A stretch of 64,000 bases of DNA from an uncultured bacterium (GTDB taxonomy: Bacteria > Desulfobacterota > JADFVX01), in contig CBDVDA010000001.1 in NCBI GenBank assembly GCA_965372635.1, forward strand, positions 2,860 to 66,859, written 5' to 3'. The translations under genes were made by a program, and so were the position numbers. This document shows positions 33,677 through 57,008 of the stretch, one piece after another. The notes beneath the pieces are model-generated. The model was given only the letters and a program-made list of their open reading frames with translations, was not told the origin of the DNA and ran no database searches. Within the stretch, counting starts at the first letter, position 1. Each line of letters starts with the position of its first letter.

Positions 33677-33858
33677 TCAATCAAGGCTGGGCCGTTGTCT
33701 GCGAGATCGGATTTATCGGCTGGGTGGGGTGCGCCATCGGGTTTATTTTCAGAGCCTTCGGTGAAGATGATACCTTTTACGGCTCACGGGCGCTCTTTTG
33801 GGGAGGGCTTGTCGTTCTCTTTTATGGGCTCTGGGTAGCAGGTCTGGTCAGCGCCTAG
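33673..33858 (+). CDS. Small 2-TM membrane protein, of the kind commonly coupled to GT2 polyprenyl-phosphate glycosyltransferases
   Basis: MINQGWAVVCEIGFIGWVGCAIGFIF...LVVLFYGLWVAGLVSA. Its start overlaps the glycosyltransferase stop (ATGA). Confidence 0.45.
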   Translation: MINQGWAVVCEIGFIGWVGCAIGFIFRAFGEDDTFYGSRALFWGGLVVLFYGLWVAGLVSA

Positions 33859-34934
33859 TTTCTTTGCTGAACTTTTGGGAAATAAAGGGTTCTAAGTTTG
33901 GAATCCGCTTTTTTCTGTTCTTTTTCATGGCCTGTTTTTTACCGGGGGGTTGCGCGGGAACGGTAGAGCAAGAGAGCTCTGTTCTACCGGGAAAAACGAT
34001 TTCCTGGCCACCATCGCCGCTTAGGGCGCGGATCAAATATATCCGAAGCATAGGAGCGCCCTCATCGATTGCACTCAAAAAGGAAAAGGGGTGGCTGGGA
34101 AAGCTTTTTGATTTCATTACCGGTGGCGAGGGCGTGGGGGGAAAGGCTATCGATACCCCCTATGGTCTTTTTTACGACAGCGATGCCGATTTGCTCTTTG
34201 TTGCCGACAGGGCTCTACAGGGGGTGCATCGATACGACCTGAAGGCGGGGGAGGCCTCCTTTATGACAGAAGCGGGAGAAACCCGCCTGGAAATGCCGGT
34301 CATGGTGGTTGGCGGGGGAGGCAGGTATTACGTTTCAGATACGGTCCTCAATAAGGTTTTTGTATTTGACTCGAAGGGCCGGGTGACCAGGGAAATCGAA
34401 GAGTGGGGGCGTCCGGGAGGGATGGCCTATAGCGCCGCACAGGAAAGGCTTTATGTCGTCGATGTTACAGAGGGTCGTATTAAGGCCTTCGATGCCGAGG
34501 GAAACTTTCAGTTTTTCTTTGGAAACATCGGCGTCGGCAAGGGAGAATTTAACCTCCCTTCCAATATCTGGGTTGATAGGGCCGGTAAGGTTTATGTTAC
34601 CGATTCGATGAATTTCAGGATCCAGATTTTCGATGAATTTGGAAACCATGTGGGAAATATCGGAAAACTGGGGGATTCTCCTGGCGCCTTTGCCCGGCCG
34701 AGAGGCGTTGCCGTCGATAGCGATGGAAACGTCTATGTTGTGGACGCGAATTTCGATAATATCCAGATATTTAACCAGGAGGGAGAATTGCTTCTCGTCT
34801 TTGGCACGCCGGGAACGAAGGCCGGTGAGTTTACATTGCCGAGCGGTATCTTTATAGACCGGAATGACAGGATATATATCTCCGATTCGTACAACAAAAG
34901 AATTCAGGTATTTCAGTATTTTAAAGAGCAATAA
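33798..34934 (+). CDS. NHL-repeat (six-bladed beta-propeller) protein, probably a lipoprotein
   Basis: Repeated GxFxxPxGIAVDxxGNIYVxDxxNxRIQxF modules. Possible lipobox LPGGC after a hydrophobic stretch. The 5' end overlaps the previous small gene, so the start is uncertain. Confidence 0.7.
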   Translation: MGRACRSLLWALGSRSGQRLVSLLNFWEIKGSKFGIRFFLFFFMACFLPGGCAGTVEQESSVLPGKTISWPPSPLRARIKYIRSIGAPSSIALKKEKGWLGKLFDFITGGEGVGGKAIDTPYGLFYDSDADLLFVADRALQGVHRYDLKAGEASFMTEAGETRLEMPVMVVGGGGRYYVSDTVLNKVFVFDSKGRVTREIEEWGRPGGMAYSAAQERLYVVDVTEGRIKAFDAEGNFQFFFGNIGVGKGEFNLPSNIWVDRAGKVYVTDSMNFRIQIFDEFGNHVGNIGKLGDSPGAFARPRGVAVDSDGNVYVVDANFDNIQIFNQEGELLLVFGTPGTKAGEFTLPSGIFIDRNDRIYISDSYNKRIQVFQYFKEQ

Positions 34935-34937
34935 GCG

Positions 34938-35732
34938 ATGTTTTTTTATAACAAAAGAGTAGTTCCGGCTTTATTGGCGGCCCTGGTTTTAACCGGGCTC
35001 ACCCCATCCCTTTTTGCCGGTGTTGCGGACACGAAGCACAACCTTGCCTACTGGAGCGGCAATACGGTCCGCTCGGAAGAAGAGACGCAGATCTGCAAGT
35101 TCTGCCATACGCCGCACAATGCAAACCCGGCCGTCCCCCTCTGGGGGCATGATCTATCGTCGGAAGGGCCTTTCCAGATGTATTCCTCGGCCACGCTGGT
35201 TATCGACAATTCCACTGTCCTTGCCGACAGTAAATATAAAACCGGTTTGACTGGGGCATCCAAACTCTGCATGGGCTGCCACGACGGGGTGACGAGCCTC
35301 GGTGCGCTGGTAAACGCCAACATTACCATGAATACCTATGATACCTTGGCGGGAAGGCCGTCGGCCTATTCGGACCTCCGGAACAAGCACCCCGTTTCTT
35401 TTGTGTATAATGATGCTGTCAGGACGGCGATCAATAGTGTGAAGACTGGTTTTTACGACCTGCCGGATGAAACAACAAATGGGTCCATCATTAATCCACA
35501 AGTAGAAAAAAAGTGGCTTCAGGAAGGAAAGCGGGTGGAGTGCAATATCTGCCATGATCCCCATGACGATAAGGATGGGGACGCGTCGAAAAATCCCTTC
35601 TGGATAAGCACGAGTGTCGGTTCATTTTCTGCTCACGATTCAGTTTGTGTTACCTGTCACAGCCCTACGGCCGCTTTTGTAGAATATACGGGTTTTGGCG
35701 AATATACTAGCTTTAGCAAGGTGTACCCATAA
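34938..35732 (+). CDS. Periplasmic tetraheme c-type cytochrome
   Basis: Signal peptide and four CXXCH motifs (CKFCH, CMGCH, CNICH, CVTCH). Confidence 0.8.
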   Translation: MFFYNKRVVPALLAALVLTGLTPSLFAGVADTKHNLAYWSGNTVRSEEETQICKFCHTPHNANPAVPLWGHDLSSEGPFQMYSSATLVIDNSTVLADSKYKTGLTGASKLCMGCHDGVTSLGALVNANITMNTYDTLAGRPSAYSDLRNKHPVSFVYNDAVRTAINSVKTGFYDLPDETTNGSIINPQVEKKWLQEGKRVECNICHDPHDDKDGDASKNPFWISTSVGSFSAHDSVCVTCHSPTAAFVEYTGFGEYTSFSKVYP

Positions 35733-35769: not shown

Positions 35770-36891
35770 ATGATGAAACTTTTGATTTCGAAAGCGCAAA
35801 TATTGCTTCTTGTTTTGGTGTGCTTTGCTTGCAACGCCGAGGCCGCACCCAAAGAAAAGCTTCGTTTTCCCGACCTTCACCGGGCATCGAATATGGTTAC
35901 GGGCGGGTGCGAATCATGCCACGCGGGGAGCAAGATGAACCGTGCCGTTAAGGAGACCTGCCTCCAGTGTCACGGGTCCATCGGCGACCTTAAGGGCGCC
36001 GAAAAGAAAAAACTGCTCAACCCTTTCTACCGGGGAGGACGGCAAATCAGGAAGATTGACATGAGAAGCCTGCTTGAAAAAGAATACAGGCATCCTCTCG
36101 GCGAGGAAGGAAACTGGCACAGTGCTCACGAGGAACTTCCGGAACGTGTGATGGATGCGCCCCGGCATGTGGAGTGCGTCGATTGTCACAATGCGCATTA
36201 TCTGAAAACTGCCAACAAACTGGCCGGTTTAAGAGGCGTCAGCAAGACGGGCATCTATGGCGTTCGGGCACGTTATGAGTATGAAATCTGTTTCAATTGT
36301 CATTCCGACAGCTTTAATCTTCCCGTCTGGCAAACAAACAAAAGATTGGAATTCGATGAAAACAACCCTTCCTACCATCCTGTCGTAGCGGAAGGGCAAA
36401 GCGGGATTGTTCCAAGCCTGAAAACCCCCTATAAGGAGACCTACGAGGAACCGGGCGATATTTCAATAATCAAATGCACCGATTGTCACGGAAACGATGA
36501 TGACCGGGGACCACAGGGGCCCCATGCTTCGATTTATCCTTTTATTTTGAAAAAGAAATATTCCATGCAGGATGGCCTCGATGAACGACCGAAAGAGTAC
36601 GATCTTTGCTATAGCTGCCACAAGAGAAGCAGTATCCTCGGCAACATTTCTTTTCGTTGGCATTCTTTACATATTCAGGGTGATATTATCAAGGGGGTAA
36701 AGGGAACGAGCTGCTTTACCTGCCATGACGCACATGGCAGCAGGGAGTATACCCACCTCATAAAATTTAATGAAGAAGTTGTGTTTATAAATACTTCTTC
36801 ATTGGAACTGAAATTTGTGGATAAAGGAGAATTTACCGGAGAATGTTATTTGAATTGCCATGGCGTTAACCATAGTCCGAAGGGTTACTAA
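35770..36891 (+). CDS. Multiheme c-type cytochrome (7 canonical CXXCH plus one CX3CH)
   Basis: Signal peptide. CESCH, CLQCH, CVDCH, CFNCH, CTDCH, CYSCH, CFTCH, CYLNCH. Confidence 0.8.
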   Translation: MMKLLISKAQILLLVLVCFACNAEAAPKEKLRFPDLHRASNMVTGGCESCHAGSKMNRAVKETCLQCHGSIGDLKGAEKKKLLNPFYRGGRQIRKIDMRSLLEKEYRHPLGEEGNWHSAHEELPERVMDAPRHVECVDCHNAHYLKTANKLAGLRGVSKTGIYGVRARYEYEICFNCHSDSFNLPVWQTNKRLEFDENNPSYHPVVAEGQSGIVPSLKTPYKETYEEPGDISIIKCTDCHGNDDDRGPQGPHASIYPFILKKKYSMQDGLDERPKEYDLCYSCHKRSSILGNISFRWHSLHIQGDIIKGVKGTSCFTCHDAHGSREYTHLIKFNEEVVFINTSSLELKFVDKGEFTGECYLNCHGVNHSPKGY

Positions 36892-37388
36892 TGCAGCCTA
36901 TAACAAGGCAGGGTATTTTGACTTTGATGGTATGTTCAGTTATTTTTTTTGGTTGCTCCGGAGGAGACCATAAATTCGGAAATGTTCATCGAGAGAGCAG
37001 TCTCTCTCCCGGAACGGATGGACTAAGAGAAAAGATAAATCCGCATCGTGGAAAACATTGCCTGAAATGTCATGTCACAGATGGAAATGAATTGTTTGAC
37101 CTGAGAAAAAAGAAAGGGCGTCAGGATTTTTCACCAGAAACTAACTTTCTCAAGGCAAACTTAAATAAATTATGCGCTTCCTGTCATGATAAGAAAAAAG
37201 GCGACCACCCGGTGGGTGCCGCTCCGGGAATAAACAGGCTCGATCTTCCACTGGATGAAAAAGGTAAAATAAACTGCGCTGCAACCTGTCACGATGTACA
37301 TATAAGCAATGAAAATATTTCAGGGGTAAAGAAAGGCTTGCTCCGGGCGCCCGCAGAAAAGTTATGTTTATCATGTCATGATGTTTGA
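36891..37388 (+). CDS. Small multiheme c-type cytochrome (3 CXXCH plus one CX3CH)
   Basis: CLKCH, CASCH, CAATCH, CLSCH. Signal peptide with a possible lipobox (FFGCS). Confidence 0.75.
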   Translation: MQPITRQGILTLMVCSVIFFGCSGGDHKFGNVHRESSLSPGTDGLREKINPHRGKHCLKCHVTDGNELFDLRKKKGRQDFSPETNFLKANLNKLCASCHDKKKGDHPVGAAPGINRLDLPLDEKGKINCAATCHDVHISNENISGVKKGLLRAPAEKLCLSCHDV

Positions 37389-37430: not shown

Positions 37431-38642
37431 ATGCCGGTGTTCAGATGTAAGGTGGGAGATGAAAGCGGAAAACTCGATGAGAAGGAAATAGAGGCAAGCG
37501 ATAGCAAACAGTTGCGGGAAAGGCTTGAGCAGGAAGGGTTATATGTTTATGAAATAAAGCAAAAGGGCACTTTTCAATTCGCCGTACCGAGTTTTTCGGG
37601 GCTCAAAAAAATCAGTACCGACGAATTTCTTGTCTTCAACCAGCAATTAATGGCTTTGCTTAAAGCCGGTCTGCCCCTGCTTTCATCCCTCGAAACGCTA
37701 GCCAGCCAGGAAGAAACCCCCCACTTTCAAAAAATACTAACTTCCGTTGCTAAAGAGGTTAAAGAAGGGGCTCCTTTTTCAAGTGCCGTTGAAGACTATC
37801 CCAGGGTTTTTTCAAAACTTTATGTTTCTTCACTCCGTGCGGGGGAAAAAAGCGGAGATCTCGTTTTAAATATCTCGAGATACATCGCTTACACAAAAAG
37901 GGTGGAAGAGCTAAAAAAAAAGGTCATTACAGCATCCGTCTATCCATTAATTCTTCTTACCGTTGCAACCTTTGTCATCCTTTTTCTTCTCCTCTATGTG
38001 GTGCCGTCATTCAGCCAGGTTTTTCTTGATGCAGGTACCTCTCTTCCTACGCCGACCCGTATTCTTATTGCCTTTACGGGGTTGGTAAAAAACAATGTAA
38101 TCTTTCTCTCAATACTGTTTATGGCGCTTTATCCTGTGTTTATGTTTGCCAGAAAAAATCAAAACCTTCGCCGGAAGATGGACAAGTTGAAATTGAATAT
38201 TCCCTGGGTCGGGAAAATCATTCATCGTTATGCGGTAGCGAAATTTTGCAGGACCCTTTCAACGATTCTTAAAAGTGGAGATCCCCTTGTTTCCGCTATT
38301 CCCCTGGCAGCAGGCACCCTGGAAAACAGTTATATGGAGGAGAGTGTTGTGGACGCCTCTAAGCGTGTTCGGGAGGGGGTCGGCCTGTCTCAGGCAATGG
38401 CAGACGCGAAATTGATGCCGGCCATGGCGCTGAAGATGATCAACGTCGGTGAATCGAGCGGCTCACTGGAAGAGATGTTTGACAACGTTGCCGATCTTTT
38501 TGAAGAGGAGGTGGATCGGAAATTAAATATTCTCACGTCAACCATCGAGCCCCTGCTTATGCTCAGCATGGGATTGATAGTTGCATTTATTGTTGTAGCC
38601 ATGTATCTTCCTATATTCAAACTTGCCGAGACGGTTAGATAG
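37431..38642 (+). CDS. gspF: Type II secretion / type IV pilus platform protein (GspF/PilC family)
   Basis: 403 aa, with the duplicated GspF cytoplasmic domain and 3 TM layout. Confidence 0.8.
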   Translation: MPVFRCKVGDESGKLDEKEIEASDSKQLRERLEQEGLYVYEIKQKGTFQFAVPSFSGLKKISTDEFLVFNQQLMALLKAGLPLLSSLETLASQEETPHFQKILTSVAKEVKEGAPFSSAVEDYPRVFSKLYVSSLRAGEKSGDLVLNISRYIAYTKRVEELKKKVITASVYPLILLTVATFVILFLLLYVVPSFSQVFLDAGTSLPTPTRILIAFTGLVKNNVIFLSILFMALYPVFMFARKNQNLRRKMDKLKLNIPWVGKIIHRYAVAKFCRTLSTILKSGDPLVSAIPLAAGTLENSYMEESVVDASKRVREGVGLSQAMADAKLMPAMALKMINVGESSGSLEEMFDNVADLFEEEVDRKLNILTSTIEPLLMLSMGLIVAFIVVAMYLPIFKLAETVR

Positions 38643-38653: not shown

Positions 38654-40366
38654 ATGGCAGAGAGAAAAAAAATAGGTGAAATTCTGGTTGAAATGGGATT
38701 TCTGTCGGATGAGCAACGCCGGGAAGTCCTTTCTCAGGAAATTACGGATGGGAAAAGATTCGGAGAGAGATGTATCGAAGGAGAGCTTCTTGATGATGAA
38801 CAACTCGCCAGAGCTCTCGCAAGGCAAAGTGGGAACGAATTTATCGACTTGTCTGACTTTGAACCTTCTGAAGAGCTTGTAGACGCAGTTCCTCTCGAAC
38901 TTATTCATCGCTATCTTTTCGTTCCTTACCAAAAGGAGGGAAAGAGGCTAACCATTGCCGTTTCCGACCCTACTGACGTTTTGTTAATTGATGAGTTGGA
39001 ACTTCTCCTCGATTTGACCATTGTTGCCGGGGTTTCACCGTCCCAGGCGATTGCGAAAGCGATTAAGGTCTTTGAACGTTCGGGAAGGCTTGTCAAGGAT
39101 GTATCCGCCGGGATGGAGTTGCAGTTGGTTAAAGAGACTGACGACGGCGATGAAGTCCTCTCCATGGAGAAAATATCGGAGGAGATGAGCCCTGTTGTCA
39201 AGCTCGTCGATTCGACAATTCTCGATGCATTAAGCAAGCGAGCTAGTGACATTCATATTGAGAGCACTCGCAAAGGGCTGGAAATCAAATACCGGATAGA
39301 TGGCGTTCTTTACAGCGCTGCCGTCCCTCTCGATACCCAGTTTCAATCTCCCATCATTTCGAGGATTAAGGTAATGTCCGAACTGGACATCTCGGAAAAA
39401 CGGATTCCTCAGGATGGCCGTTTCAAGCTGAGAATCGGAGGGAAGGCGATTGATTTCAGGGTCTCCATCATGCCGAGTATTCACGGTGAAGATGCCGTTA
39501 TCAGGATTCTGGACAAAGAGTCGATCGGTGCTGAAATTCAAAAGCTGAGCCTCGAATCTGTCGGATTTCACGAGGATGAAATTGTTCGATTCCGTAAAAT
39601 GATTCGGGAACCCTACGGTATGGTGCTTGTGACGGGGCCGACGGGAAGCGGAAAAACGACGACTCTTTATGCGGCCCTGACGGAGATCAACAGCGTTGAG
39701 GAAAAAATCATTACCATTGAAGACCCTGTCGAATATAATCTTGACGGCATCGTACAGATACCGGTTAATGAAAAAAAAGGCCTTACCTTTGCAAAGGGCC
39801 TCCGGTCGATTTTACGTCATGACCCGGATAAGATTATGGTAGGAGAGATAAGGGATGTGGAAACTGCGCAAATAGCGATCCAGTCCGCCCTGACGGGCCA
39901 TCTGGTCTTTACTACTGTTCATGCCAACAACGCCTTTGACGTTATCGGACGCTTCCTGCATATGAACATGGAGCCCTATAATTTCGTATCGTCCCTGAAT
40001 TGTATCCTGGCTCAAAGACTGGTTAGAAAGCTCTGCGAAAAGTGCAAGCAGGAAGTCAAACTATCACGGGAAGAGATGGAAGAATCCCACTTCGACTACG
40101 AAAAATATAAAGATCATACCTTTTTTGATGCAAAAGGGTGCGGTGACTGTAATTATACAGGCTACAGGGGGAGGTCGGCAATCGTTGAACTGCTCGACCT
40201 TACGGAGGAAATTCGGGAACTGATTCTGGAAAAAGCCTCAACGGCAAAATTGAAAGCGGCGGCTGCCAAGTCAGGCACCACTTTTTTAAGGGGCGCCGCC
40301 GTCAGAAAAGTGTTGAGTGGCGAGACGACTCTGAAAGAAATAAATCGCGTCACCTTTGTTGACTGA
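38654..40366 (+). CDS. gspE: Type II secretion / type IV pilus assembly ATPase (GspE/PilB family) with an MshEN-like N-terminal domain
   Basis: Walker A GPTGSGKTTTLYAAL and tetracysteine CEKCKQ...CGDCNYTGYRGR. The N-terminus has two RxGE(I/L)LV..G.(L/I)...QL..AL..Q-type motifs (KIGEILVEMGFLSDEQRREVLSQ, RFGERCIEGELLDDEQLARALARQ), as in c-di-GMP-binding MshEN domains. Confidence 0.85.
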   Translation: MAERKKIGEILVEMGFLSDEQRREVLSQEITDGKRFGERCIEGELLDDEQLARALARQSGNEFIDLSDFEPSEELVDAVPLELIHRYLFVPYQKEGKRLTIAVSDPTDVLLIDELELLLDLTIVAGVSPSQAIAKAIKVFERSGRLVKDVSAGMELQLVKETDDGDEVLSMEKISEEMSPVVKLVDSTILDALSKRASDIHIESTRKGLEIKYRIDGVLYSAAVPLDTQFQSPIISRIKVMSELDISEKRIPQDGRFKLRIGGKAIDFRVSIMPSIHGEDAVIRILDKESIGAEIQKLSLESVGFHEDEIVRFRKMIREPYGMVLVTGPTGSGKTTTLYAALTEINSVEEKIITIEDPVEYNLDGIVQIPVNEKKGLTFAKGLRSILRHDPDKIMVGEIRDVETAQIAIQSALTGHLVFTTVHANNAFDVIGRFLHMNMEPYNFVSSLNCILAQRLVRKLCEKCKQEVKLSREEMEESHFDYEKYKDHTFFDAKGCGDCNYTGYRGRSAIVELLDLTEEIRELILEKASTAKLKAAAAKSGTTFLRGAAVRKVLSGETTLKEINRVTFVD

Positions 40367-40377: not shown

Positions 40378-41268
40378 ATGTTCTTTAACCGTACTCACAA
40401 AACTATCGACATCACATCCGATTCTGTACGTTTCGTGGAAATTGAAGGTTCCGGATCCATGCCGCGACTCATTCATGCCGCTACAGATGACCTTCCCGAC
40501 GGACTTGTTGTCCCCTCCTTTGCCAAATCAAATATTAGCGACCGGGAATTGCTGAAGGAAAAAATCTCCGCGCTTATTCCGGATAAAAAAAGAGGTGGAG
40601 ACATTGCGCTTTGCCTCCCTGACTCTCTCGTGAAAATCACGTCTCTCAGCTTTGAGGATTTGCCGGCCAAAAAAGACGAAGCGACAAAATTGATTCTCTG
40701 GCGCTTAAAAAAAACAGTGCCTCTCCCAACGGAACTCATAAAAATCGATTATGCAATCCTTTCGCAGGAAGAGGCCGGGGTACAAGTACTGACGGCTGCC
40801 GCCTCCAAAACAGTAATCAGGGAGTATGAAGATGTTTTGCGGGAGCTCGGTTTTCGACCCCGTCTGGTGGATATAGCCACCCTGAGCGCCCTTTTTCTTT
40901 ACAAAAAAACGATTGATGATAATTCACTCTTTATCAACTTTAAAGATAACATCATGAGCTTTGCCTTTCTGGTCGAAGGCAAAGTAGAATTTTTCCGGAG
41001 TAAAGAAATGGACTCTACGCCTGCTACTGTTGAGAAGGAATTTGCGTCTACTTATCGGTACTATCAAGCAAATTTTCGGGAACAGGGCGTCGATAATATT
41101 TGTGTCCATTTGGCCGGTGAAAATTCAGATGAGATTCTGAGCGCTTTAAAGAACAGTTTTGAAGGGGAAATTGCAGTTCTCCGGTTATTGGATTTTGCAT
41201 CCTGCCCTGCATCTTTAACAACCGATGAAAACTACTCGTCGGCAATCGGCCTTGCTCTCACGCTTTAA
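40378..41268 (+). CDS. PilM-like actin-fold assembly protein (GspL cytoplasmic-domain analogue)
   Basis: 296 aa. Sits in the pilM position ahead of single-TM PilN/PilO-like genes. Confidence 0.6.
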   Translation: MFFNRTHKTIDITSDSVRFVEIEGSGSMPRLIHAATDDLPDGLVVPSFAKSNISDRELLKEKISALIPDKKRGGDIALCLPDSLVKITSLSFEDLPAKKDEATKLILWRLKKTVPLPTELIKIDYAILSQEEAGVQVLTAAASKTVIREYEDVLRELGFRPRLVDIATLSALFLYKKTIDDNSLFINFKDNIMSFAFLVEGKVEFFRSKEMDSTPATVEKEFASTYRYYQANFREQGVDNICVHLAGENSDEILSALKNSFEGEIAVLRLLDFASCPASLTTDENYSSAIGLALTL

Positions 41269-41302
41269 TGTTCTACTTGAATTTTTAACATAAATATTTG
41301 GA

Positions 41303-41869
41303 ATGATTTCTTTTAACCTGGCCACATACGAATATACAGACAAGAGGGTAGCCCTCCTGATAGCGGTTTTTATTTCTTGCACCTTGGTTTTATTTGCCGG
41401 CTACAATTACATAGTTTACGAAAAATCAAAGGTGCAATCTGATCGTGCCCTGAAAGAGGTAAAAAAAATACAAAAAGATATCTCTCTTATTAAAAAACAA
41501 ATCGAGGAAAGCAAAAAAGGGAAAGACAGCGCCATCGGAGGACGTTATGAAGAGAAGCTTTCGGATAAGATACTCTGGCTAAATGAAATTATAGGAAGAA
41601 AAGCATTTTCCTGGAGTCAATTGTTGTATTCTCTGGAGAAGGCGTCCCCTCCTCGTATCGCAATTAAAACAATAAGACCAAATTTTTCCGGAAAAAAGAT
41701 TAGAATCATCGGCCAAGCGAAAGATGTGGCTGCTATTACAACCTTTGTAGATAGTCTTCAGGGGACTAAATATATTACGAAAAGTTTTCTCTTGAAAGAG
41801 AATATTGTCATTGTAGAAAAAAAATATGAAGCCGTTGATTTTGAAATTGAATGTGAAGGAAATTTTTGA
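41303..41869 (+). CDS. PilN-like bitopic inner-membrane protein
   Basis: N-terminal TM (LLIAVFISCTLVLFAGYNYIVY) followed by a coiled-coil. 188 aa. Confidence 0.55.
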   Translation: MISFNLATYEYTDKRVALLIAVFISCTLVLFAGYNYIVYEKSKVQSDRALKEVKKIQKDISLIKKQIEESKKGKDSAIGGRYEEKLSDKILWLNEIIGRKAFSWSQLLYSLEKASPPRIAIKTIRPNFSGKKIRIIGQAKDVAAITTFVDSLQGTKYITKSFLLKENIVIVEKKYEAVDFEIECEGNF

Positions 41870-43214: not shown

Positions 43215-43230
43215 GAAGGAGATATTTCAG

Positions 43231-48551: not shown

Positions 48552-49928
48552 ATGAAAAAATTTAAGATACTTGTTGTTGATGATGAAGAATTGATCCGGT
48601 GGTCTCTGGAACAGAATCTGAAGGAAGAGGGGTACGCGACGCTCACTGCGGCAACGGGGGAAGAAGCGCTAAAGCTTGTCCGCGACGAGCTTCCCGATCT
48701 GGTTTTTCTCGATCTCCAACTCCCGGGGATCGGCGGCATGGAAGTCCTTCCGAAGATCAAGGAAATCAACAAAGATATTATTGTTATAATCATCACGGCC
48801 CTCGGTGTGGTCGAGATGGTTGTAAGGGCGATGAAGCTCGGAGCATACGACTATATCAACAAGCCCTTCAATCTCGATGAAGTCTCCATCATTGTAGAAA
48901 AGGCGATGGAAACGGTTAAGTTGAGGAAGGAGGTTGCCACCCTCCGGGCCGAACAGAGCAAGCAGTTCAACCCCGTGAACATCATCGGCATCGATCCGAG
49001 GATGAAGCAGGTCATGACTATGGTGGAAAAGGTGGCCAAGAGCGATTCCACCACCGTTCTCATTACGGGTGAGAGCGGCACGGGGAAAGAGTTGATCGCC
49101 AAGTCGATCCACAATCACAGCGCACGCGCCAGCGAACCTTTTATGGCGGTAAACTGTGCCGCACTGCCGGAAAACCTCCTGGAGAGTGAACTCCTGGGTC
49201 ATGAGCGAGGGGCCTTCACCGACGCGAAGAGCATGAAAAAAGGACTCTTCGAGATGGCCGACGGCGGGACGCTCTTCCTGGACGAAATCGGTGATATGCC
49301 GCTTGGTATGCAGGCAAAGATTTTGCGGGTTTTGGAAGATAAAATAATAAGGCGACTCGGGGGAGTGAAGGACATTCTCGTCGATGTGAGGATTATTTCG
49401 GCGACGAACAAGGACATCCTGGCTGCCATTGAAGAAGGCGCCTTCAGGAGCGACCTTTATTACCGTCTTCAGGTTATTCCTATAAAGCTGGCGCCTCTAA
49501 GAGAACGTCCGGGCGATATAATGCCGCTGGTGCTGCACTTCATTGAACAGTTTAACGCCGAATTCAACAAGGGGGTTAAAGGGGTTTCCAAGATGGCGGA
49601 GAGGTTTCTCGGGGACTATTCCTGGCCCGGCAACGTGAGAGAACTCAGAAACGTCATAGAGAGGGCGATTATCCTCGAAAACGAGGATACCCTTCTCGTT
49701 GAACACCTGCCTCTCGAAATTGTCGCCATGGGAAAGAAGCGTGTCCCCCAGAGCTCTCTCGAAATCACCCTTCCCGCCGGTGGAATCTCCATGGAGGCTG
49801 TTGAGAAGAATCTCATTCAGCAGGCCCTTTCCATCACAGGCGGGAACCAGTCCAAAGCCGCGAGAAAAGTGGGGCTCGGCATCGATGCCTTCAGGTACCG
49901 GATGAAAAAATTCGGTTTGCTCCAATAA
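48552..49928 (+). CDS. Sigma54-dependent response regulator (NtrC/PilR family: REC, AAA+ sigma54-activator, HTH)
   Basis: REC domain, GESGTGKE Walker A, GAFTDA, ESELFGHE-like motif and a C-terminal Fis-type HTH. Confidence 0.88.
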   Translation: MKKFKILVVDDEELIRWSLEQNLKEEGYATLTAATGEEALKLVRDELPDLVFLDLQLPGIGGMEVLPKIKEINKDIIVIIITALGVVEMVVRAMKLGAYDYINKPFNLDEVSIIVEKAMETVKLRKEVATLRAEQSKQFNPVNIIGIDPRMKQVMTMVEKVAKSDSTTVLITGESGTGKELIAKSIHNHSARASEPFMAVNCAALPENLLESELLGHERGAFTDAKSMKKGLFEMADGGTLFLDEIGDMPLGMQAKILRVLEDKIIRRLGGVKDILVDVRIISATNKDILAAIEEGAFRSDLYYRLQVIPIKLAPLRERPGDIMPLVLHFIEQFNAEFNKGVKGVSKMAERFLGDYSWPGNVRELRNVIERAIILENEDTLLVEHLPLEIVAMGKKRVPQSSLEITLPAGGISMEAVEKNLIQQALSITGGNQSKAARKVGLGIDAFRYRMKKFGLLQ

Positions 49929-50160: not shown

Positions 50161-50742
50161 ATGAGGAGTCGATTGATAGTATTGCTGGGTGCGTTACAGG
50201 TTTATTTGTTTGCAGGCACTCTCTATGCAGCGCCGGGCTACGTAGGCGCGGAGGGGTGCAAATGCCATAAGGCAGAAATTGCCGACTGGGAGCGAAGCGG
50301 TCACGGAAAGGCATTTAATCTGCTGAAACCGGGTAAAAAGAAATCGAAAAAGAAAAAGGCGGGGCTCGACCCCAAAAAGGATTATACGCGCGATGAAAAA
50401 TGTCTAAAATGCCATGTTACCGGCAAGGGCGAGGAGGGAGGGTTCAGGGATTTTGCCTCCACGCCCGGAATGGCCGGCGTGGGGTGCGAATCGTGCCACG
50501 GCCCCGGCAGTGAATACAGGTCTCTCCATAAGGAAAAAACGACGGCATTTTCCCGCGATGAAGCGAAGGCACTCGGCGAAACCTACGGCTCGCTCGACGC
50601 GGGGGTCTGTGAAACTTGCCACGTAAATAAGGACAACCCCTTTAAGCCGGAGATGAACAAGAAATATAAATTCGACCACGGGGCGGCGCTCAAAAAGAAT
50701 CGGGAGTTTCACGATTATTACGAACTGGAGGGGCAGCATTGA
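50161..50742 (+). CDS. Periplasmic tetraheme c-type cytochrome (NrfA/c554-superfamily-like first heme with W..SGH)
   Basis: Signal peptide. CKCHK, CLKCH, CESCH, CETCH. GCKCHKAEIADWERSGH motif. Confidence 0.8.
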   Translation: MRSRLIVLLGALQVYLFAGTLYAAPGYVGAEGCKCHKAEIADWERSGHGKAFNLLKPGKKKSKKKKAGLDPKKDYTRDEKCLKCHVTGKGEEGGFRDFASTPGMAGVGCESCHGPGSEYRSLHKEKTTAFSRDEAKALGETYGSLDAGVCETCHVNKDNPFKPEMNKKYKFDHGAALKKNREFHDYYELEGQH

Positions 50743-50805
50743 TGGCGCTTTTCCCGTCGGGCTGCCCAGTTAGACAGTTTCTCTTAGGCGCCCCGAAATA
50801 ATATA

Positions 50806-51396
50806 ATGACTCTTTCGGACATTGGCGCAGGAACCTTTGCCTTGAGTACGCTCTTATTATTTTTCGCCGGAGAGGGGTTGACGTCGGAAGCGAAATACGT
50901 TGGCGCCGAAGGATGCCAGTGCCATAGATCTGAAATCTCCGACTGGAAACGGAGTAAACACGCCAAGGCCTTCGATCTCCTCTTGCCCGGCAAGAGGAAG
51001 CTGGCGAAGAAGAGAGTTGGGCTGAAACCGGATAAGGATTACTCCCGCGACAGGAAGTGCATAAAATGCCATGTCGTTGGTTATCGGAAGGGAGGGTTTG
51101 TCAACATCAATTTCACACCCCAGTTTGCAGGGGTGGGGTGTGAGTCGTGTCACGGACCGGGAAGCAAGTACCGGGTCCTGCACGGGAAAAGGCCGCGCAC
51201 ATTTAAAAAGGCGGAAGTGAAGGCGCTCGGCCAGCACTACGGTTCCCTCGACGAGGCGGTTTGCAGGCGTTGCCACGAAAACGGGGAGAGCCCCTTTAAA
51301 CGCAGCATTGATGAAAAATACCGTTTCCATCTTAAGACGGAACTTTCGAAGACGAAGGCCTTTCATCGATACTATCCTTTGAAAGCGAAACATTAA
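50806..51396 (+). CDS. Periplasmic tetraheme c-type cytochrome, paralog of the 50161 gene
   Basis: CQCHR, CIKCH, CESCH, CRRCH. Collinear with the 50161 product at about 55% identity by eye. Confidence 0.8.
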   Translation: MTLSDIGAGTFALSTLLLFFAGEGLTSEAKYVGAEGCQCHRSEISDWKRSKHAKAFDLLLPGKRKLAKKRVGLKPDKDYSRDRKCIKCHVVGYRKGGFVNINFTPQFAGVGCESCHGPGSKYRVLHGKRPRTFKKAEVKALGQHYGSLDEAVCRRCHENGESPFKRSIDEKYRFHLKTELSKTKAFHRYYPLKAKH

Positions 51397-51453: not shown

Positions 51454-53760
51454 ATGAAACTGAGCACAAAATTTATGAGCGCTGTCGGCCTCATTCTCCT
51501 CCTTCTCTCCATCGGCGATGTCTGGCTGAATATGAGAAAAGAGAGGGCCATCGTCACCAAAGACATCAAAAAGTGGACCTTCATCTTTGCGGAAAATGTG
51601 CGGGTTTCTCTGAACACCCTCATGCGGGAAGGGAAGATGGACATCCGTTTTGCCATGTTCGACGGCATGAAATCGGAGATCAAGGGGCTAGAAAACGTCC
51701 GGGTCATCCGGTCTCCCAAGGTGAATGAACTTTTCATGCTTGCCAACGAAAAGGACGTTATCCCCAGGGAAGAAAGCCGGATCGAGAGTATGGCGGAAGA
51801 GATTGCTGAACTGAAGGATGAGTTGCAGGACGCCCGTGACGCCGACGAGAGAAGCGACCTGAAGGAGGAGATTTCGGACCTTCTCCGCGACGTGGAAAAG
51901 AGCAAAAAAATTATCGAGGCGGCGAAGACGCCAAAGGAGATCGATAAAAGGGAACGCCCGCTGGACAACCTGGACAGGCAGGCACTCAAAACCGGCGAGA
52001 TTCTGTATGACATAGATTTTGAGGGAGACAAGGCCCGGGTTATCGTTCCCTACAAAATCCAGAAAAAGGGGTGCTCCGAGACGAGCGGCTGCCACCGCTA
52101 CGGAAAGGAAGGGGACGTGCTCGGCGGCATCAACATCGAGTTCTCCCTCACCGAAGTGAACGAAGAAATAATGAATAACAACATTACCGCTTCGCTCATC
52201 GGGGTTTTGAAGCTCGTCATTATTCTGGTGACGCTCCTCGTTATTCTCACCGTTTCCATTACGCGACCCGTAAAGAAGGTTGGCAAAATGGTCAAGGCGA
52301 TTGCCGCCGGGAAGGGGGATCTCACCCAGCGCGTCACTGTCACTTCCGAAGATGAAGTGGGAATGCTCAGCCGATGGTTCAATCTTTTCATGGACGGCTT
52401 GCAGGACATCATCAAGGATGTTTTTGCCACCAGCCAGGATATTTCTACCGTATCGAAAAAAGTAAATCAGGCGTCGGTAACGCTCAAAAATTCAAGCCAT
52501 GCACAGCGTGAAGCGATGGACGAGACTTCGTCTTCTATCCAGGAAATGAGTTCATCCATCCAGTCTATCGCCCATGAGACGGGAAACCAGTTAAAATCGA
52601 CGGAAGATGCCTCTGCCTCGGTACTGGAAATGCTGTCGTCCATTTCTGAAGTGGCCGAGCATGTGGACCAGCTTGTGAACTCGGCCGATAAAACCGCCTC
52701 ATCGGTCCACCAGATTGTTGCCTCCCTGCAACAGGTCGGCTCCCACGTGGACGACCTTTTTGGTGAGACGGCGGACGTCGTTTCCGCCGCCACCGAGATC
52801 GAAGCGGCGGTAAAAGAGGTGACCATCCACGCGAAGGAAAAGGCGCGTTTGGCCGAAAAGGTGCGGGAAAATGCCTCGTCCTTCGGCATGGCGGCCATCA
52901 AGCAGACGGCACGCGGCATGGAGAAGATCAAGAAAGAGGTAACGGCTACGGCGAGCGTCATCGACCGGCTGGAAGAGCGATCCGACGAAATCGGCCGGAT
53001 TATCAACGTCATCGAGGAGGTGGCGGAGACGACCAACCTCCTCTCGCTGAATGCCGCTATCATCGCCGCCCAGGCGGGAGAGCAGGGCAGGGGCTTTGCC
53101 GTCGTAGCCGACGAGGTGAAGGAGTTGGCGCGGAAAACGGCCTCTTCCACCAAAGAGATCACACGCCTCATCAGCCAGGTTCAGCTGGAAGTTGGGGATG
53201 CCAAGAAATCGATGGCAAATAGCTCTGCCAGTGTCGATGACGGGGTCAAGTTCTCCAAAGAGGCGAGCGGGGCTCTCTCCAAGATAATCGAAAGCGCCGA
53301 ATCATCGCTGGAGATGGCGAAGAAGGTGGAGGTGGCAACAGGTGAGCAGGCACGGGTCCTTGGCCATGTGATGGCGTCTATCCAGAAGATCAACGATATG
53401 GTAGAGGAGATCAAGCGCGCTACGGACGAACAGAAGACCGCCTCCGGTCATATACTGGAAGCTACGGAGGAAATGCGAGATTCCACACAGATGGTGCGCC
53501 GCTCCACGCAGGAGCAGTCGAGGGAGAGCGATTACATAACCAAAATCATTGCCGACGTTACGAACAAGATGCACTCCATTGCAAAGGCGACGTCGGAACA
53601 GCAGAGCGCCTCGGAAATCATCGTCAAGGCCGTCGAGACGATGCGCGACGAGATCGAAAAAAACGTAGAACTCTCCGTGCATCTGGAAGGCGTGGTGAAG
53701 GAACTGGACGAGCATCAGGAGCATCTCACCGACAAGGTAGGCTCTTTTAAGGTTGAATAA
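51454..53760 (+). CDS. Methyl-accepting chemotaxis protein with a periplasmic sensor domain homologous to the kinase sensor (variant heme motif GCSETSGCH)
   Basis: TM, a periplasmic domain of about 200 aa, TM2, HAMP and an MCP signalling domain ([26 protein letters not shown]). The sensor segment C...[19 protein letters not shown] aligns with the kinase segment CHLCHGESSSSIGILNVELSL. Confidence 0.85.
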
Positions 53761-53853
53761 CCCCGGTCACCGGTCGGGGATGGTACTGAAGGTGAACCAA
53801 TGAAACATGTTTTTTCAACTAGGGTGGAATACATCTTGAGGAGGAAAGAGAGA

Positions 53854-54759
53854 ATGAAGGGAGTAATGAGTGCGCTGTTGCTGGCGGCTGTTTTTCTGAT
53901 TATGCCGGCATCGGTGCAGGCAGAGGCTAACTATCTCGGCGAAAAGGAGTGTTATGCCTGCCACAAAGACATAAAAAAGGTTTATCTCGAAAACAGACAC
54001 GGGAAGGTATTCACCCGAAATCCAAAAAATGATTTACAGGCGCGGGGCTGCGAGGCGTGTCACGGCGCGGGCGGAGAACATAAGGCTGCGGCGGACCGCC
54101 TCGATAAGGGAGAAAAGGTTCCCCTCGAAATAGAAGGTTTTAAAAGAGGTGCTGAAAATGTCTCCGGCATGAACGGACGGTGTCTCACTTGCCACGAGAA
54201 GGGTGCGCGGACACACTGGCGGGGAAGCAGTCATGAGCGCGAGGAACTTGGTTGTGTTGATTGCCACACCATCCACGCAGAGGGGCGCATAGACGGTACA
54301 GAAGTCTGCCTCCGCTGCCACGTAGAACGCCGCGCGCAACTCCAGCGTTCATCTCATCTCCCATTACGGGAGGGAAAGGTGAAATGTTCGAGTTGCCATA
54401 ACCCCCACGGGAGCCTCGGTCCGTCACTCCTCAAGACCGCCTCTATAAACGAAAACTGCTACAGTTGCCACCAGGAAAAACGGGGGCCGCTGCTCTGGGA
54501 GCACGCCCCGGTACGGGAAAACTGCACCAACTGCCACAATCCCCACGGCTCCAACTACGAGGCCCTTCTCAAGATGAAGGTTCCCTATCTCTGTAAAAGC
54601 TGCCATATGGAGCAGTACCATCCAAGCTCTCTCTACGACGGTTCACAGGTCATCGCAGGCGGCGGAAATGACCGCCACACTATCGGCAGGGGATGTCTCA
54701 ATTGTCATCCCCAGGTCCACGGGTCGAACCACCCGTCGGGCGCCAGGATGCAGAGGTGA
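53854..54759 (+). CDS. Periplasmic decaheme c-type cytochrome of the MtrA/MtoA/PioA family
   Basis: Signal peptide. Ten CXXCH motifs, including CHNPHG-type motifs characteristic of the MtrA family. GGAGG RBS before the ATG at 53854. Confidence 0.85.
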   Translation: MKGVMSALLLAAVFLIMPASVQAEANYLGEKECYACHKDIKKVYLENRHGKVFTRNPKNDLQARGCEACHGAGGEHKAAADRLDKGEKVPLEIEGFKRGAENVSGMNGRCLTCHEKGARTHWRGSSHEREELGCVDCHTIHAEGRIDGTEVCLRCHVERRAQLQRSSHLPLREGKVKCSSCHNPHGSLGPSLLKTASINENCYSCHQEKRGPLLWEHAPVRENCTNCHNPHGSNYEALLKMKVPYLCKSCHMEQYHPSSLYDGSQVIAGGGNDRHTIGRGCLNCHPQVHGSNHPSGARMQR

Positions 54760-54800
54760 TCGCCATGAAAAGTATGAGAGAGAGTTTTGAGGAGGCGAAA

Positions 54801-57008
54801 ATGAACAGCAAATCATTACTTATGGTGGGATTGGTTCTGGCGATACTGATCGCTGCGCCGGGCGTTTCACTAGCGAAGGACGGCTATTCGGGCAGCGTCA
54901 CGGTAGGGGTCGAACGGACCGATCAGGACAAACCGTCGTTCAAGTCGGGGGAATACGACGGCGTCGATGACGACAGCACCCATTTTCTCGGCGCCGCCGA
55001 AGTGACCTACGAGAAAGAAAGCTACTATATGGATTTCGTAGCCGAAGAGGTGGGCCACGACAGCCGGTCACTCGGCGTTGAGAGTGGTCGCTATGGCACC
55101 TACCGCTTTTACATCGAATACGATCAGCTCCCCCACCTGGTAAACGACACAGGGGTGACCCCCTTTTTAGGGGCAGGGAGCGGCAACCTGACGCTGCCCG
55201 CTTTCTTCAACGCCACCGCGTTGACGACGAACATGAACCTGACTAACTTGAACCGCGTCGATCTGGAGACGGAGCGGAAGACCCTCACCGTCGGCTACGG
55301 GCGGGCATTGAGGGAAGGACTCGATTTTTCCATCCAGTTCAAGCGGGAAGAAAAAGAGGGGATCAAGGAAATCTCAGGCGTCGTTGGATACCACGGTGGG
55401 AATGGCCGCTCGGCCATCATGCCCGAACCGGTGGATTACAAAACGGATGAACTGAGAGTTTCCTTCGAGTATAACACGGAAAAGGGGAGTGCCAGGCTGG
55501 AGTATTTCCTATCCCGCTTCGAGAACAAGGTACCGACTCTTACTTGGGAGAATATTTATGGCACAGTCATTGGTGGTGGCCCGCCTTATCAGACGGGCGC
55601 CAATTCGCTCATTTCGCTGCCGCCGGACAATGAGCACCAGAAGCTGAGCCTGTCGGGCGCTTATAACCTGACCGATGTGACCCGTCTTTCCATGATCGCC
55701 GAACTCGGCAGGATGGAGCAGGATGAGGACCTCCTCCCCTACTCCACTAATTTCTATGCTACAGCGTTACCGAGGGCCAACGCTCAGGCGGAGATCGAAA
55801 CGACCCACTTCGGCCTGAACCTCACGTCCCGGCCCCGGCCCAAATTGAATGTGACGGCAAAATACCGCTATTACGAGACGAAGAACAAGACGCCGGTGGA
55901 CCTTTTCCAATATGTAAAAAATGACAACGCCGCGGCAGCAGGCCTTCAACCAGCCATTGCTGAAGAAACCGCTGTTTATAACAGTCCCTACGATTATAAA
56001 CAGCAGCAGTTGAAACTGGATGGAAACTACCGGCTGGCGAAGACGACGACGGTGAAACTCGGCGTGGAACGTGAGGAGATCGACCGAAGTCACCGTGAGG
56101 TGGAGAAGACGGAGGAAAATACCTATCGGGCGGGCGTCAAGGTGCGGGTGCCACAGGCGCTTACCCTTAACATAAACGCCATGCACGCAAGACGGGAGGC
56201 CGATGGTGGATATGATGTGTTGCGCGTTTATGAAGAGCACCACACATCGGGTTACCTTGCAGGCGTATCCAATCCGCTTGAGTATTTTGACAATCATCCC
56301 GACATGCGCAAATACGATATAGCCGACAGGCAGCGGGACCGTGTTGGGATCAACATGACCGTTTTTGCCGGGCCGGAGACGACCGTCGGCCTCTACCTGA
56401 ACCGGACGGAGGATGATTACGACCGTTCCCTCTTCGGGCTCCAGGAGAGCGACAACGACAGCTACACCGTCGATATGACACGGAGCCTGTCGCGCCACGC
56501 TTCTCTCTACGCCTTCTACACCAACGAGCAGTCGGAGATGCTACAGGCGAGCCGGGATTATGAGGGTGGTGCCCCCGGCACGAAGGCTGCCCAGGCATGG
56601 GATGCGACGCGCGACTGGACGGCTAACCATGACGATAAAAACGACACACTCGGTGTGGGCGCCACGCTGAGTTTCCTCAGTGATGACCTGACTGTGGACG
56701 CCAACTATAGCTATTCTTCGGCGGTGACGGATATCAGCTTTACGGCGGGAAGTGCGCTTCCGGTGCCCATCGATTTGCCGCAGCTTCAGACGAGGTTGAA
56801 CACGCTGGACGTGACGGGGCGCTACCGCTTCGACAAGCAGTTGACCCTCGGGGTCGGCTACAACTACGAGCGCTATCGGGCCGACAACTGGTCCACCGAC
56901 GGTTTCGATCCCGGAACGGCGACCATCCCGCTCGTGCTGACCATGACGGGAGGGGTGCCGGATTACGATGCACACCTCTTCAGGTTATTTGCGAGTTACG
57001 ATTTTTAG
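54801..57008 (+). CDS. Outer-membrane beta-barrel porin of the MtrB/MtoB/PioB family (partner of the decaheme cytochrome)
   Basis: Signal peptide MNSKSLLMVGLVLAILIAAPGVSLA. About 735 aa, Y/T/N/G-rich with alternating beta-strand pattern and a C-terminal ...YDF. Immediately downstream of the decaheme gene. Confidence 0.75.
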   Translation: MNSKSLLMVGLVLAILIAAPGVSLAKDGYSGSVTVGVERTDQDKPSFKSGEYDGVDDDSTHFLGAAEVTYEKESYYMDFVAEEVGHDSRSLGVESGRYGTYRFYIEYDQLPHLVNDTGVTPFLGAGSGNLTLPAFFNATALTTNMNLTNLNRVDLETERKTLTVGYGRALREGLDFSIQFKREEKEGIKEISGVVGYHGGNGRSAIMPEPVDYKTDELRVSFEYNTEKGSARLEYFLSRFENKVPTLTWENIYGTVIGGGPPYQTGANSLISLPPDNEHQKLSLSGAYNLTDVTRLSMIAELGRMEQDEDLLPYSTNFYATALPRANAQAEIETTHFGLNLTSRPRPKLNVTAKYRYYETKNKTPVDLFQYVKNDNAAAAGLQPAIAEETAVYNSPYDYKQQQLKLDGNYRLAKTTTVKLGVEREEIDRSHREVEKTEENTYRAGVKVRVPQALTLNINAMHARREADGGYDVLRVYEEHHTSGYLAGVSNPLEYFDNHPDMRKYDIADRQRDRVGINMTVFAGPETTVGLYLNRTEDDYDRSLFGLQESDNDSYTVDMTRSLSRHASLYAFYTNEQSEMLQASRDYEGGAPGTKAAQAWDATRDWTANHDDKNDTLGVGATLSFLSDDLTVDANYSYSSAVTDISFTAGSALPVPIDLPQLQTRLNTLDVTGRYRFDKQLTLGVGYNYERYRADNWSTDGFDPGTATIPLVLTMTGGVPDYDAHLFRLFASYDF

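Follow-up and report, generated by a model that had tools for sequence, protein, structure and literature searches.

The stretch of DNA described here, hereafter the window, comprises 64,000 nucleotides of contig CBDVDA010000001.1 from an uncultured member of the Desulfobacterota. Its subject is a block of genes at 33798-57008 that encodes multiheme cytochromes, a type II secretion system (T2SS), a pair of regulators and an MtrAB-type outer-membrane conduit. Open reading frames (ORFs) were called and translated, and the window proteins were then scanned with Pfam and NCBIfam. The block contained 21 genes, all oriented in one direction and arranged in three groups (Table 1), with tight spacing between genes as far as 49.9 kb. 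It was flanked upstream by housekeeping genes (GlnS, NAD kinase, RarA, MutL-MiaA, UvrA, IspG, a Na/Pi transporter and a family 2 glycosyltransferase, GT2) and downstream by genes for a methyltransferase, BamD, a TPR protein, ferrochelatase and a PD-(D/E)XK nuclease. A first-pass annotation, made from the sequence alone, had given these block genes in this order, and the list was reproduced nearly word for word. The same annotation had read the block as a single module. A modular anatomy is instead very probable, and we think it somewhat more probable than not that three modules, each serving extracellular electron transfer, lie side by side in the block in place of a single machine, with the secretin of the first proposed as the exit for an OmcE-like cytochrome.

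Table 1. Genes of the block and of its left border, with coordinates in the window
Feature	Position	Strand	Basis and remarks
GT2 polyprenyl-phosphate glycosyltransferase-like gene	32927..33676	+	NCBIfam family-level matches only; conserved left border of the secretion locus
Hydrophobic 61-aa ORF, conserved	33673..33858	+	Overlaps GT2 stop codon (ATGA); no family match
NHL six-bladed beta-propeller, probable lipoprotein	33798..34934	+	Pfam NHL 82.6 bits; real start probably TTG 33864
OmcE-family tetraheme cytochrome, T2SS-linked paralogous subfamily (by sequence)	34938..35732	+	4 CXXCH; PDB 7TFS match
Octaheme cytochrome	35770..36891	+	7 CXXCH + C-terminal CX3CH
Small tetraheme lipoprotein cytochrome	36891..37388	+	3 CXXCH + CX3CH
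PulF/GspF platform protein	37431..38642	+	Pfam T2SSF 193 bits; NCBIfam GspF 353 bits (cutoff 424)
PulE/GspE assembly ATPase, MshEN (c-di-GMP-type) N-domain	38654..40366	+	T2SSE 439 bits, MshEN 56.6 bits
PilM-, PilN-, PilO/GspM-like alignment proteins (three genes)	40378..42429	+	Pfam PilM_2, PilN, PilO, T2SSM_b above cutoffs
262-aa bitopic protein at PilP/GspC position ('PulP')	42426..43214	+	C-terminal third conserved in all loci
Lipoprotein secretin: TPR, STN/N domains, C-terminal cohesin	43183..45573	+	Secretin 155 bits, Cohesin 30.9 bits; probable start 43231
Three pseudopilins, by position PulG/OxpG/TklG (names: PMC3543383)	45570..47026	+	Two GspG-like, third without Glu5
HAMP histidine kinase, periplasmic sensor with CXXCH (heme-c type)	47066..48547	+	CXXCH conserved in 4 orthologs
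Sigma54-dependent response regulator (NtrC/AtoC type)	48552..49928	+	Pfam Sigma54_activat 238 bits
Two paralogous cytochrome c554-family proteins	50161..51396	+	PF13435 83-84 bits; 3 CXXCH + conserved CxCH
Methyl-accepting chemotaxis protein (MCP), periplasmic CX5CH sensor	51454..53760	+	Pfam MCPsignal, HAMP
Decaheme MtrA/DmsE-family periplasmic cytochrome	53800..54759	+	10 CXXCH; TIGR03508 250.8 bits, cutoff 192.2
MtrB/PioB outer-membrane porin	54693..57008	+	TIGR03509 403.5 bits, cutoff 240; PF11854 470 bits; probable start near 54798

The secretion genes encoded a T2SS of an atypical kind. All components of a canonical (Gsp) core, i.e., secretin, assembly ATPase, platform protein and major pseudopilin, were recognised at Pfam level, while NCBIfam equivalog scores fell under their cutoffs (178 against 351 for GspD, 534 against 630 for GspE and 39-44 against 89 for GspG; GspF as in Table 1). 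The ATPase scored 581 bits against PilB, also under the NCBIfam cutoff, and the secretin was about equally distant from PilQ and GspD, with a slightly higher score against PilQ. The places of GspL and GspM were taken by PilM-, PilN- and PilO-like proteins, the last of which also matched GspM weakly. None of the three pilin-like genes matched GspH, GspI, GspJ or GspK above noise, there was no GspC with HR and PDZ domains, and the protein at the PilP/GspC position had no match in Pfam, NCBIfam or PDB. The major pseudopilin-like subunits scored best against GspG and were 131-165 aa in length; the first two pseudopilins had N_methyl matches, and the third carried the sequence GFTYIH, with neither Glu5 nor an N_methyl match. 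The window had 48 predicted genes, and Pfam and NCBIfam identified neither PilT nor a prepilin peptidase among their products, just as the first-pass annotation had said. Its description of the machine as complete was correct in that the named genes are there, but not in the word itself, since GspH/I/J/K, a PDZ-type GspC and a peptidase were missing.

Gene contexts were read in two metagenome-assembled genomes (MAGs) of about 60% identity (L001 and L002), in a more distant MAG (L005) and in Geotalea uraniireducens (L004); a scan of one genome per species yielded 80 further loci, and all window proteins were compared by tblastn with 85 secretin loci. The nearest relatives were uncultured 'Deltaproteobacteria/Proteobacteria' MAGs, at 57-79% identity. 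The T2SS core was present in all 85 loci. The four loci read individually shared the order (GT2), (NHL), cytochromes, pulF, pulE with its MshEN domain, pilM/N/O-like genes, the unassigned gene, secretin and pseudopilins, where brackets mark the two genes that were not detected in all four. A collinear set of orthologs was carried by Geotalea uraniireducens, by Geobacter hydrogenophilus and G. argillaceus, by Geomobilimonas and by about 80 further loci, and the secretin had 1426 homologs, many of them from Geobacter, Geotalea and Geomonas.

Judged by the families of its components and by their order, the region at 33.8-47.0 kb is the known atypical Pul/Oxp T2SS of Geobacteraceae (the GSU1775-1788 region), a system that is ancestral to Desulfuromonadia. 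In Geobacter sulfurreducens this comprises GSU1775-1784, with the cytochromes GSU1785-1787 and an NHL gene alongside; every component belonged to the same family as its counterpart in the window (35-65% identity), and the gene order of Geobacter and Geotalea relatives was that of the window. The window's clade had in addition a third pseudopilin, itself well conserved, followed downstream by genes for a heme-sensor kinase and a sigma54 regulator. The GSU numbers were mapped from the literature (PMC8557921, PMC7962754, PMC10063792) and from other Geobacter orthologs, not from the PCA sequence itself. The Geobacteraceae pseudopilins are named PulG, OxpG and TklG (PMC3543383), GSU1783 is PulE (PMC8557921), and GSU1785, GSU1786 and GSU1787 are c-type cytochromes (PMC7962754, 10.1101/2024.01.05.574438, PMC10063792). 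According to the accounts of Mehta et al. (2006) given in PMC3543383 and PMC10599522, cells need the Pul T2SS to secrete the multicopper protein OmpB and to reduce Fe(III) and Mn(IV) oxides. The earlier suggestion that this architecture is not a described system consequently fails for 33.8-47 kb, which is the Geobacteraceae Pul/Oxp T2SS with its NHL-cytochrome neighbours (PMC3543383, PMC8557921, PMC7962754, PMC10599522). The MtrAB conduit and heme-c sensors are likewise already known.

The first four genes of the block, from the NHL propeller to the small tetraheme cytochrome, behaved as a cassette. A census was made of 58 non-redundant loci in which both GT2 and pulF were detected. The cassette lay between these two genes in 29 of the 58, where the gap from GT2 to pulF was 3.1-3.9 kb and was occupied by the NHL, tetraheme and octaheme genes, with the small tetraheme gene present or not; it was cleanly missing from the other 29, in which GT2 abutted pulF (gap 265-590 bp). 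Its insertion point was fixed, in that no other position relative to the T2SS occurred in the 29 loci. The heme-binding motifs were equally constant; the count of seven plus one in the octaheme protein was kept in 32/32 orthologs, and that of three plus one in the small tetraheme protein in 19/19. Lipoboxes were present in NHL orthologs. Divergence of the cassette tracked the pairwise divergence of PulE and PulF (r 0.84-0.90, Mantel p <= 0.001, 33 taxa), which fits long co-inheritance with repeated loss, and the linkage spanned the distance from Geobacteraceae to the window's own distant clade (35-40% protein identity). In the window, cassette and pulF were separated by only 42 bp. The cassette is an optional, fixed-position accessory of the Pul/Oxp T2SS, and the earlier proposal of a tie between secretion machine and cytochromes was borne out for the first three of these. 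The literature searched held no mention of an OmcE-family cassette joined to a T2SS, and GSU1787 appeared there only in one transcriptome figure; the presence of such a cassette, lacking a beta-barrel gene, at the head of the T2SS in half of the Desulfuromonadia sampled has apparently gone unremarked.

Two domains of the secretion proteins deserve separate comment. The C-terminal cohesin of the secretin (45100-45573) was nearly universal in this T2SS family, occurring across about 55 related loci with the cassette or without it; a pairing of cohesin and cassette was ruled out, the domain being found in 27 of 28 cassette-less and 28 of 29 cassette-bearing loci. No dockerin-type partner was seen at the locus. 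The N-terminus of PulE (38654-38830) contained two copies of the motif pattern that binds cyclic di-GMP (c-di-GMP) in MshEN domains, of which the second, RFGERCIEGELLDDEQLARALARQ, was a good fit by eye; against the NCBIfam model of this motif the protein scored 36.8 bits, with a cutoff of 38.

By sequence comparison, the tetraheme protein of the cassette is an OmcE-family cytochrome. A phmmer search of PDB sequences matched it over its full length to 7TFS (E 8.7e-23), the OmcE nanowire of G. sulfurreducens (GSU0618), and also to 9YUQ (E 2.2e-12), which was taken to be the OmcE filament of Desulfuromonas soudanensis from its 16 chains and its fit to a preprint (10.1101/2025.10.22.684050). Four CXXCH motifs were invariant in an alignment of 61 sequences (C53/C56/H57, C111/C114/H115, C202/C205/H206 and C237/C240/H241), as were four further histidines, namely H34 in an N-terminal TKHNL, H60, H151 and H209; motifs and histidines alike aligned with OmcE, and together they constitute the ligand set of four bis-histidine hemes, as in OmcE. 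All 33 of the T2SS-linked orthologs had four CXXCH motifs and an N-terminal [TN][KR]HN[LF] motif. An AlphaFold2 (AF2) model of the monomer, built with no hemes, was of moderate quality (pLDDT 75, pTM 0.68), and Foldseek returned 7TFS as its sole PDB match (E 9.7e-6, probability 1.00), with a TM-score of only 0.37-0.45 and a root-mean-square deviation of 8.4 Å; a modest TM-score would be expected for a model that lacks its hemes. In a rough neighbour-joining tree the two solved OmcE proteins fell outside the T2SS-linked clades, which places the window protein in a paralogous subfamily.

Comparison with clusters of the OmcE type gave the cassette its wider context. Minimal omcE clusters are reported always to contain, besides omcE itself, genes for a large beta-barrel, for two multiheme cytochromes and for two lipoproteins with beta-propellers (preprint 10.1101/2025.10.22.684050). 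The window shared with those of G. sulfurreducens (GSU0618/7TFS) and D. soudanensis (9YUQ) a tetraheme protein from this family that retains the eight heme ligands, an NHL or beta-propeller lipoprotein gene ahead of it and two multiheme cytochromes alongside. It differed in that its tetraheme belonged to a separate clade, that there was one propeller and not two, that a large beta-barrel gene was lacking, and that the set was joined to a T2SS operon. Two OmcE-like loci without a T2SS (L167 and L168) had the order NHL gene, OmcE-like gene, and a gene for a cytochrome of about 360 aa with seven CXXCH motifs, and were collinear with the window genes; the NHL protein of the window was 38-39% identical to theirs and its octaheme protein 31-42% identical to the 360-aa cytochrome, 31-42% being also the range for the collinear set. 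Both loci also carried a 657-aa protein with no Pfam matches, and this had no homolog within the 64-kb window. The cassettes of 3.1-3.9 kb in the 29 loci had no room for such a gene, and a beta-barrel gene was found in none of the T2SS-linked cassettes.

The route by which cytochrome 'nanowires' pass the outer membrane is disputed, a pilus pump resembling a T2SS and a porin both being considered (preprint 10.1101/2025.10.22.684050; PMC12307469), and whether Geobacter possesses more, uncharacterised filaments has also been asked (PMC12307469). The locus offers a natural comparison, because one NHL/OmcE-like/octaheme set is accompanied in some loci by a large beta-barrel and in others, which have none, is joined to a secretin-based machine; from this alternation we infer that the secretin may be the outer-membrane exit for the OmcE-like paralog. 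The protein would mature in the periplasm and be pushed by the pseudopilus through the neighbouring secretin, which would replace the beta-barrel of canonical omcE clusters. The remaining cassette products, namely the NHL propeller and two cytochromes, would help to assemble or anchor it or would feed it electrons. Export of the OmcE-like protein by the T2SS is put forward tentatively, as a possibility short of probable. A wider scheme is also conceivable, though somewhat unlikely, in which this would constitute a second filament route: an OmcE-family paralog would be exported and assembled via a dedicated atypical T2SS in about half of Desulfuromonadia, probably including GSU1787 of G. sulfurreducens, with a liposecretin bearing TPR and cohesin domains replacing the omcE/omcS beta-barrel, and with a heme-sensing kinase and c-di-GMP tuning the process in the window's clade. 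The arrangement apparently exists in genetically tractable Geobacter, so the export idea is directly testable.

There is a precedent for folded multiheme cytochromes crossing the outer membrane by a T2SS, in that surface display of MtrC/OmcA in Shewanella oneidensis reportedly depends on the Gsp T2SS (Shi et al. 2008, J Bacteriol). That system is canonical (GspC-N) and unlinked to cytochrome genes, whereas in the window the gene for the candidate cargo is among the first of an atypical T2SS operon.

Several observations weigh against the preferred explanation. The link between secretion system and cassette is a genomic one, and the co-divergence described above would be expected of any neighbours that are inherited vertically. 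In relatives the gap between cassette and pulF was 90-200 bp, so that co-transcription is not assured, and pulF of G. sulfurreducens has its own regulated promoter (PMC10599522). The T2SS was intact in the 29 of 58 loci that lacked the cassette; hence the machine must have other cargo, OmpB being known in G. sulfurreducens. Filament formation by the paralog is conjectural, the AF2 model being a monomer of moderate quality with a TM-score of 0.37-0.45 to 7TFS; the 657-aa protein of L167 and L168 was read as a putative beta-barrel by its position; and third-position G-C content (GC3) in the T2SS core was about 0.2 below that of its flanks.

Some of these points would favour a different explanation, in which the cassette encodes a periplasmic or outer-membrane-associated cytochrome complex of its own, comparable to the NHL-propeller/cytochrome clusters of Desulfovibrio ferrophilus. 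The cargo of the T2SS would then be unrelated, e.g., a multicopper oxidase, and adjacency would reflect an old insertion, inertia and repeated loss. Besides the intact machines without a cassette and the separate pulF promoter, this agrees with OmpB as the sole cargo documented in the accounts available from PMC3543383 and PMC10599522, with the proposal that NHL propellers stabilise outer-membrane cytochrome complexes (PMC5815863) and with the listing of GSU1786 as a periplasmic cytochrome (10.1101/2024.01.05.574438). It fits less well with the single position of the cassette in all 29 loci, with a linkage kept between such distant clades, with the 42-bp gap in the window, or with gene-for-gene homology to filament-type clusters from which, uniquely, the outer-membrane component is absent. 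The absence of any functional link is possible, if on the whole doubtful.

The third module told a different evolutionary story from the first. Adjacent MtrA and MtrB genes, both above curated thresholds, identified an MtrAB/MtoAB/PioAB-type conduit, in which a decaheme DmsE/MtrA-family gene stands directly ahead of an MtrB/PioB porin gene. The window had no surface decaheme of the MtrC/OmcA type (best TIGR03507 score 17.9 bits, cutoff 209); the partners were instead two c554-family proteins and a chemoreceptor gene within the cluster, as in six metagenomic loci. The first-pass annotation had called the two c554-like proteins tetraheme cytochromes; two c554-family proteins were confirmed, but four hemes are unproven, since besides three canonical CXXCH motifs each has an N-terminal G-C-x-C-H one residue short of the canonical form, which was kept in 8/8 orthologs. 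A metagenome scan gave 80 further MtrB loci (81 in all). Six shared orthologous CX5CH chemoreceptor and c554 genes, and c554 orthologs flanked MtrAB in L086, L091, L092, L099, L102 and L103. In the proposed scheme MtrA, seated in MtrB, would move electrons across the outer membrane for metal reduction or Fe(II) oxidation, with the two c554-like proteins as periplasmic carriers and the chemoreceptor providing redox taxis (module 3, 50.2-57.0 kb).

In the related loci compared, the third module was not observed together with the T2SS or its cassette. The c554, MCP, MtrA and MtrB genes were found within 10 kb in 0/85 secretin loci (tblastn), and T2SS or cassette genes in 0/81 MtrB loci. The closest MtrB relative (L086, 53% identity) had the order c554-MCP-MtrA-MtrB-c554; on one side of this lay methyltransferase, BamD, TPR protein and ferrochelatase genes syntenic with 57.1-60.4 kb of the window, and on the other rhomboid, CBS and GGDEF genes, with no T2SS. 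Conversely, L006 had the T2SS, kinase and regulator, then a second GspE-like gene, then the same methyltransferase, BamD and ferrochelatase genes, with no MtrAB module. These counts and this shared junction indicate that 50161-57008 is an insertion at a conserved chromosomal junction, and the c554/MCP/MtrAB genes are an independently inherited module between the regulator and the methyltransferase gene. The second GspE-like ATPase gene of L006 (15910-17595) was 31-49% identical to PulE of the window and occupied the position of the MtrAB module.

The boundary of this module coincided with the only long intergenic gap of the block, a 232-bp interval after the regulator that contained weak terminator- and promoter-like sites. 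Within it, upstream of the first c554 gene, was a perfect 21-bp tandem direct repeat (50005-50046, + strand; two copies of CGACACATATTGCTCTTTTTG). The repeat stood just upstream of a promoter-like site at 50057-50086, was absent from every locus fetched and hence unique to the window, and may be a binding site for a regulator.

Base composition varied along the block in a manner that also separated its parts. G-C content was 44.4% in the T2SS core (GC3 0.35-0.55), 48.3% in the NHL-cytochrome cassette, 50.1% in the kinase-regulator pair and 54.4% from c554 to MtrB (GC3 0.61-0.70), the last being indistinguishable from the rest of the window (53.1%; GC3 0.56-0.76). The low G-C content that had been attributed to the whole block was therefore real for about 36-47 kb and not elsewhere, the c554..MtrB region having native composition. 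In some relatives the T2SS likewise lay 4-6 G-C points below its flanks. Both borders of the T2SS block were syntenic in relatives (L002, L006, L086), with GT2 on the left and the methyltransferase, BamD and ferrochelatase genes on the right; no integrase appeared in Pfam scans of the window, and no tRNA or repeat borders were seen. Recent transfer from low-GC relatives was considered and rejected, because the T2SS proteins (57-79% identical) were no closer to those relatives than the flanking housekeeping proteins (56-75%). With deviant composition confined to 36-47 kb, syntenic borders, native G-C content in MtrAB and no mobility genes, the block did not have the character of a genomic island, and recent horizontal acquisition of the whole of it was unsupported.

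The same data bear on the first-pass interpretation, under which the entire 23 kb would be one horizontally acquired, self-regulated unit whose T2SS exports the cytochromes of the island, MtrAB partners included. Such a unit would account for genes that are co-directional and tightly spaced to 49.9 kb, for the concern of every module with extracellular electron transfer, for a kinase and an MCP drawn from one sensor family and for the depressed G-C and GC3 of the T2SS core. It is very unlikely all the same, and largely refuted by the synteny data: conserved separation in related genomes, which had been named beforehand as evidence that would tell against it, was found for the c554/MCP/MtrAB half, L006 and L086 displaying the two halves apart at the same junction, and the composition, borders and identities just described also tell against it. 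Nor was a sigma54 promoter found in the block; there were 15 matches in the sequence against 22 expected and no -24/-12 GG/GC element in any of the intergenic regions, which leaves self-regulation unproven. A scan for promoters and terminators was at chance level, and Rfam gave no match at gathering thresholds, with neither a c-di-GMP/GEMM riboswitch nor a tRNA. The comparison carries a caution, in that an impressive 23-kb 'island' resolved into known modules once the synteny of relatives was taken into account.

A type IV pilus-like system, making fibres of PulG/OxpG-like pilins for adhesion or biofilms and not engaged in protein secretion, is a very unlikely reading of the machine. In its favour are the PilM/N/O-type alignment proteins in place of GspL/M, the slightly better scores of ATPase and secretin against PilB and PilQ and an MshEN domain typical of MSHA pilus ATPases; against it are the lack of a PilT-family retraction ATPase in the window, major subunits that are short, pseudopilin-like and closest to GspG, and the secretion phenotype of the orthologous Geobacter system (Mehta et al. 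2006, as related in PMC3543383). A secretory (pseudopilus) role in preference to motility, as first suggested, was supported.

The second module (47.1-49.9 kb) consists of the kinase and the sigma54 regulator, a pair confined to the nearest clade. In L001, L002 and L006 both genes came after the pseudopilins, whereas L005 and L007 had the regulator without the kinase. In the proposed scheme the heme-c-type kinase and the sigma54 activator would couple expression to the redox state of the periplasm. The kinase sensor resembled the heme-c PAS-like sensors of the Geobacter chemoreceptors GSU0935 and GSU0582 (3B42 = GSU0935; PF21563), in which a CXXCH is placed towards the C-terminus of the periplasmic domain; the motif was in register with 3B42, although the matches were below the curated threshold (25.5 bits against a PF21563 cutoff of 27) or weak (E 0.11 against 3B42). 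In L001 (16684-20686) and L002 (16724-20706), a four-gene operon resembling a cytoplasmic NiFe-hydrogenase (NiFeSe_Hases, Oxidored_q6, an NAD-binding subunit and an Fe-S subunit) ran towards the sigma54 regulator gene in the opposite orientation, at the place taken in the window by the MtrAB module.

The sensor of the MCP (51454-52260) differed in having no CXXCH but a conserved CX5CH, and it did not match PF21563; its orthologs adjoined MtrAB in six loci. No Pfam model exists for this family, for which HMMER retrieved 97 relatives from 1.84 billion representatives; at the same position CXXCH occurred in 51/97, CX5CH in 21/97 and CX3CH in 1/97. Direct comparison of kinase and MCP sensors was negative (BLASTP E 0.49; 10% probability with shallow hhalign profiles), but a profile of 50 distant relatives of the MCP sensor aligned with the kinase sensor profile over 139 columns (hhalign 97%, E 3e-11). 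The statement that kinase and chemoreceptor have the same sensor fold was thus right at family level, by way of distant relatives, and the MCP sensor probably derives from the heme-c sensor family. The MtrAB-linked MCP subfamily combined CX5CH with an acidic coiled-coil insert of about 65 residues.

At the left border, GT2 was immediately upstream in nearly all related loci (64-73% identity by tblastn). The hydrophobic ORF that follows it was 76% identical in L002, and a 61-aa ORF was found at the equivalent place in Geotalea; as this ORF occupies the sequence up to 33858, the NHL gene would begin near 33864 and not at 33798. Elsewhere in the window, the two most AT-rich genes encoded a RES-domain protein (19550-20392; GC 0.40, GC3 0.34) and a 399-aa protein without a Pfam match (15827-17026; GC3 0.45), which are more plausible as foreign DNA than is the block studied here. 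A leader/terminator-like hairpin model was matched weakly on each strand at 56996-57151, where the MtrB and methyltransferase genes converge, and this element is probably a bidirectional terminator.

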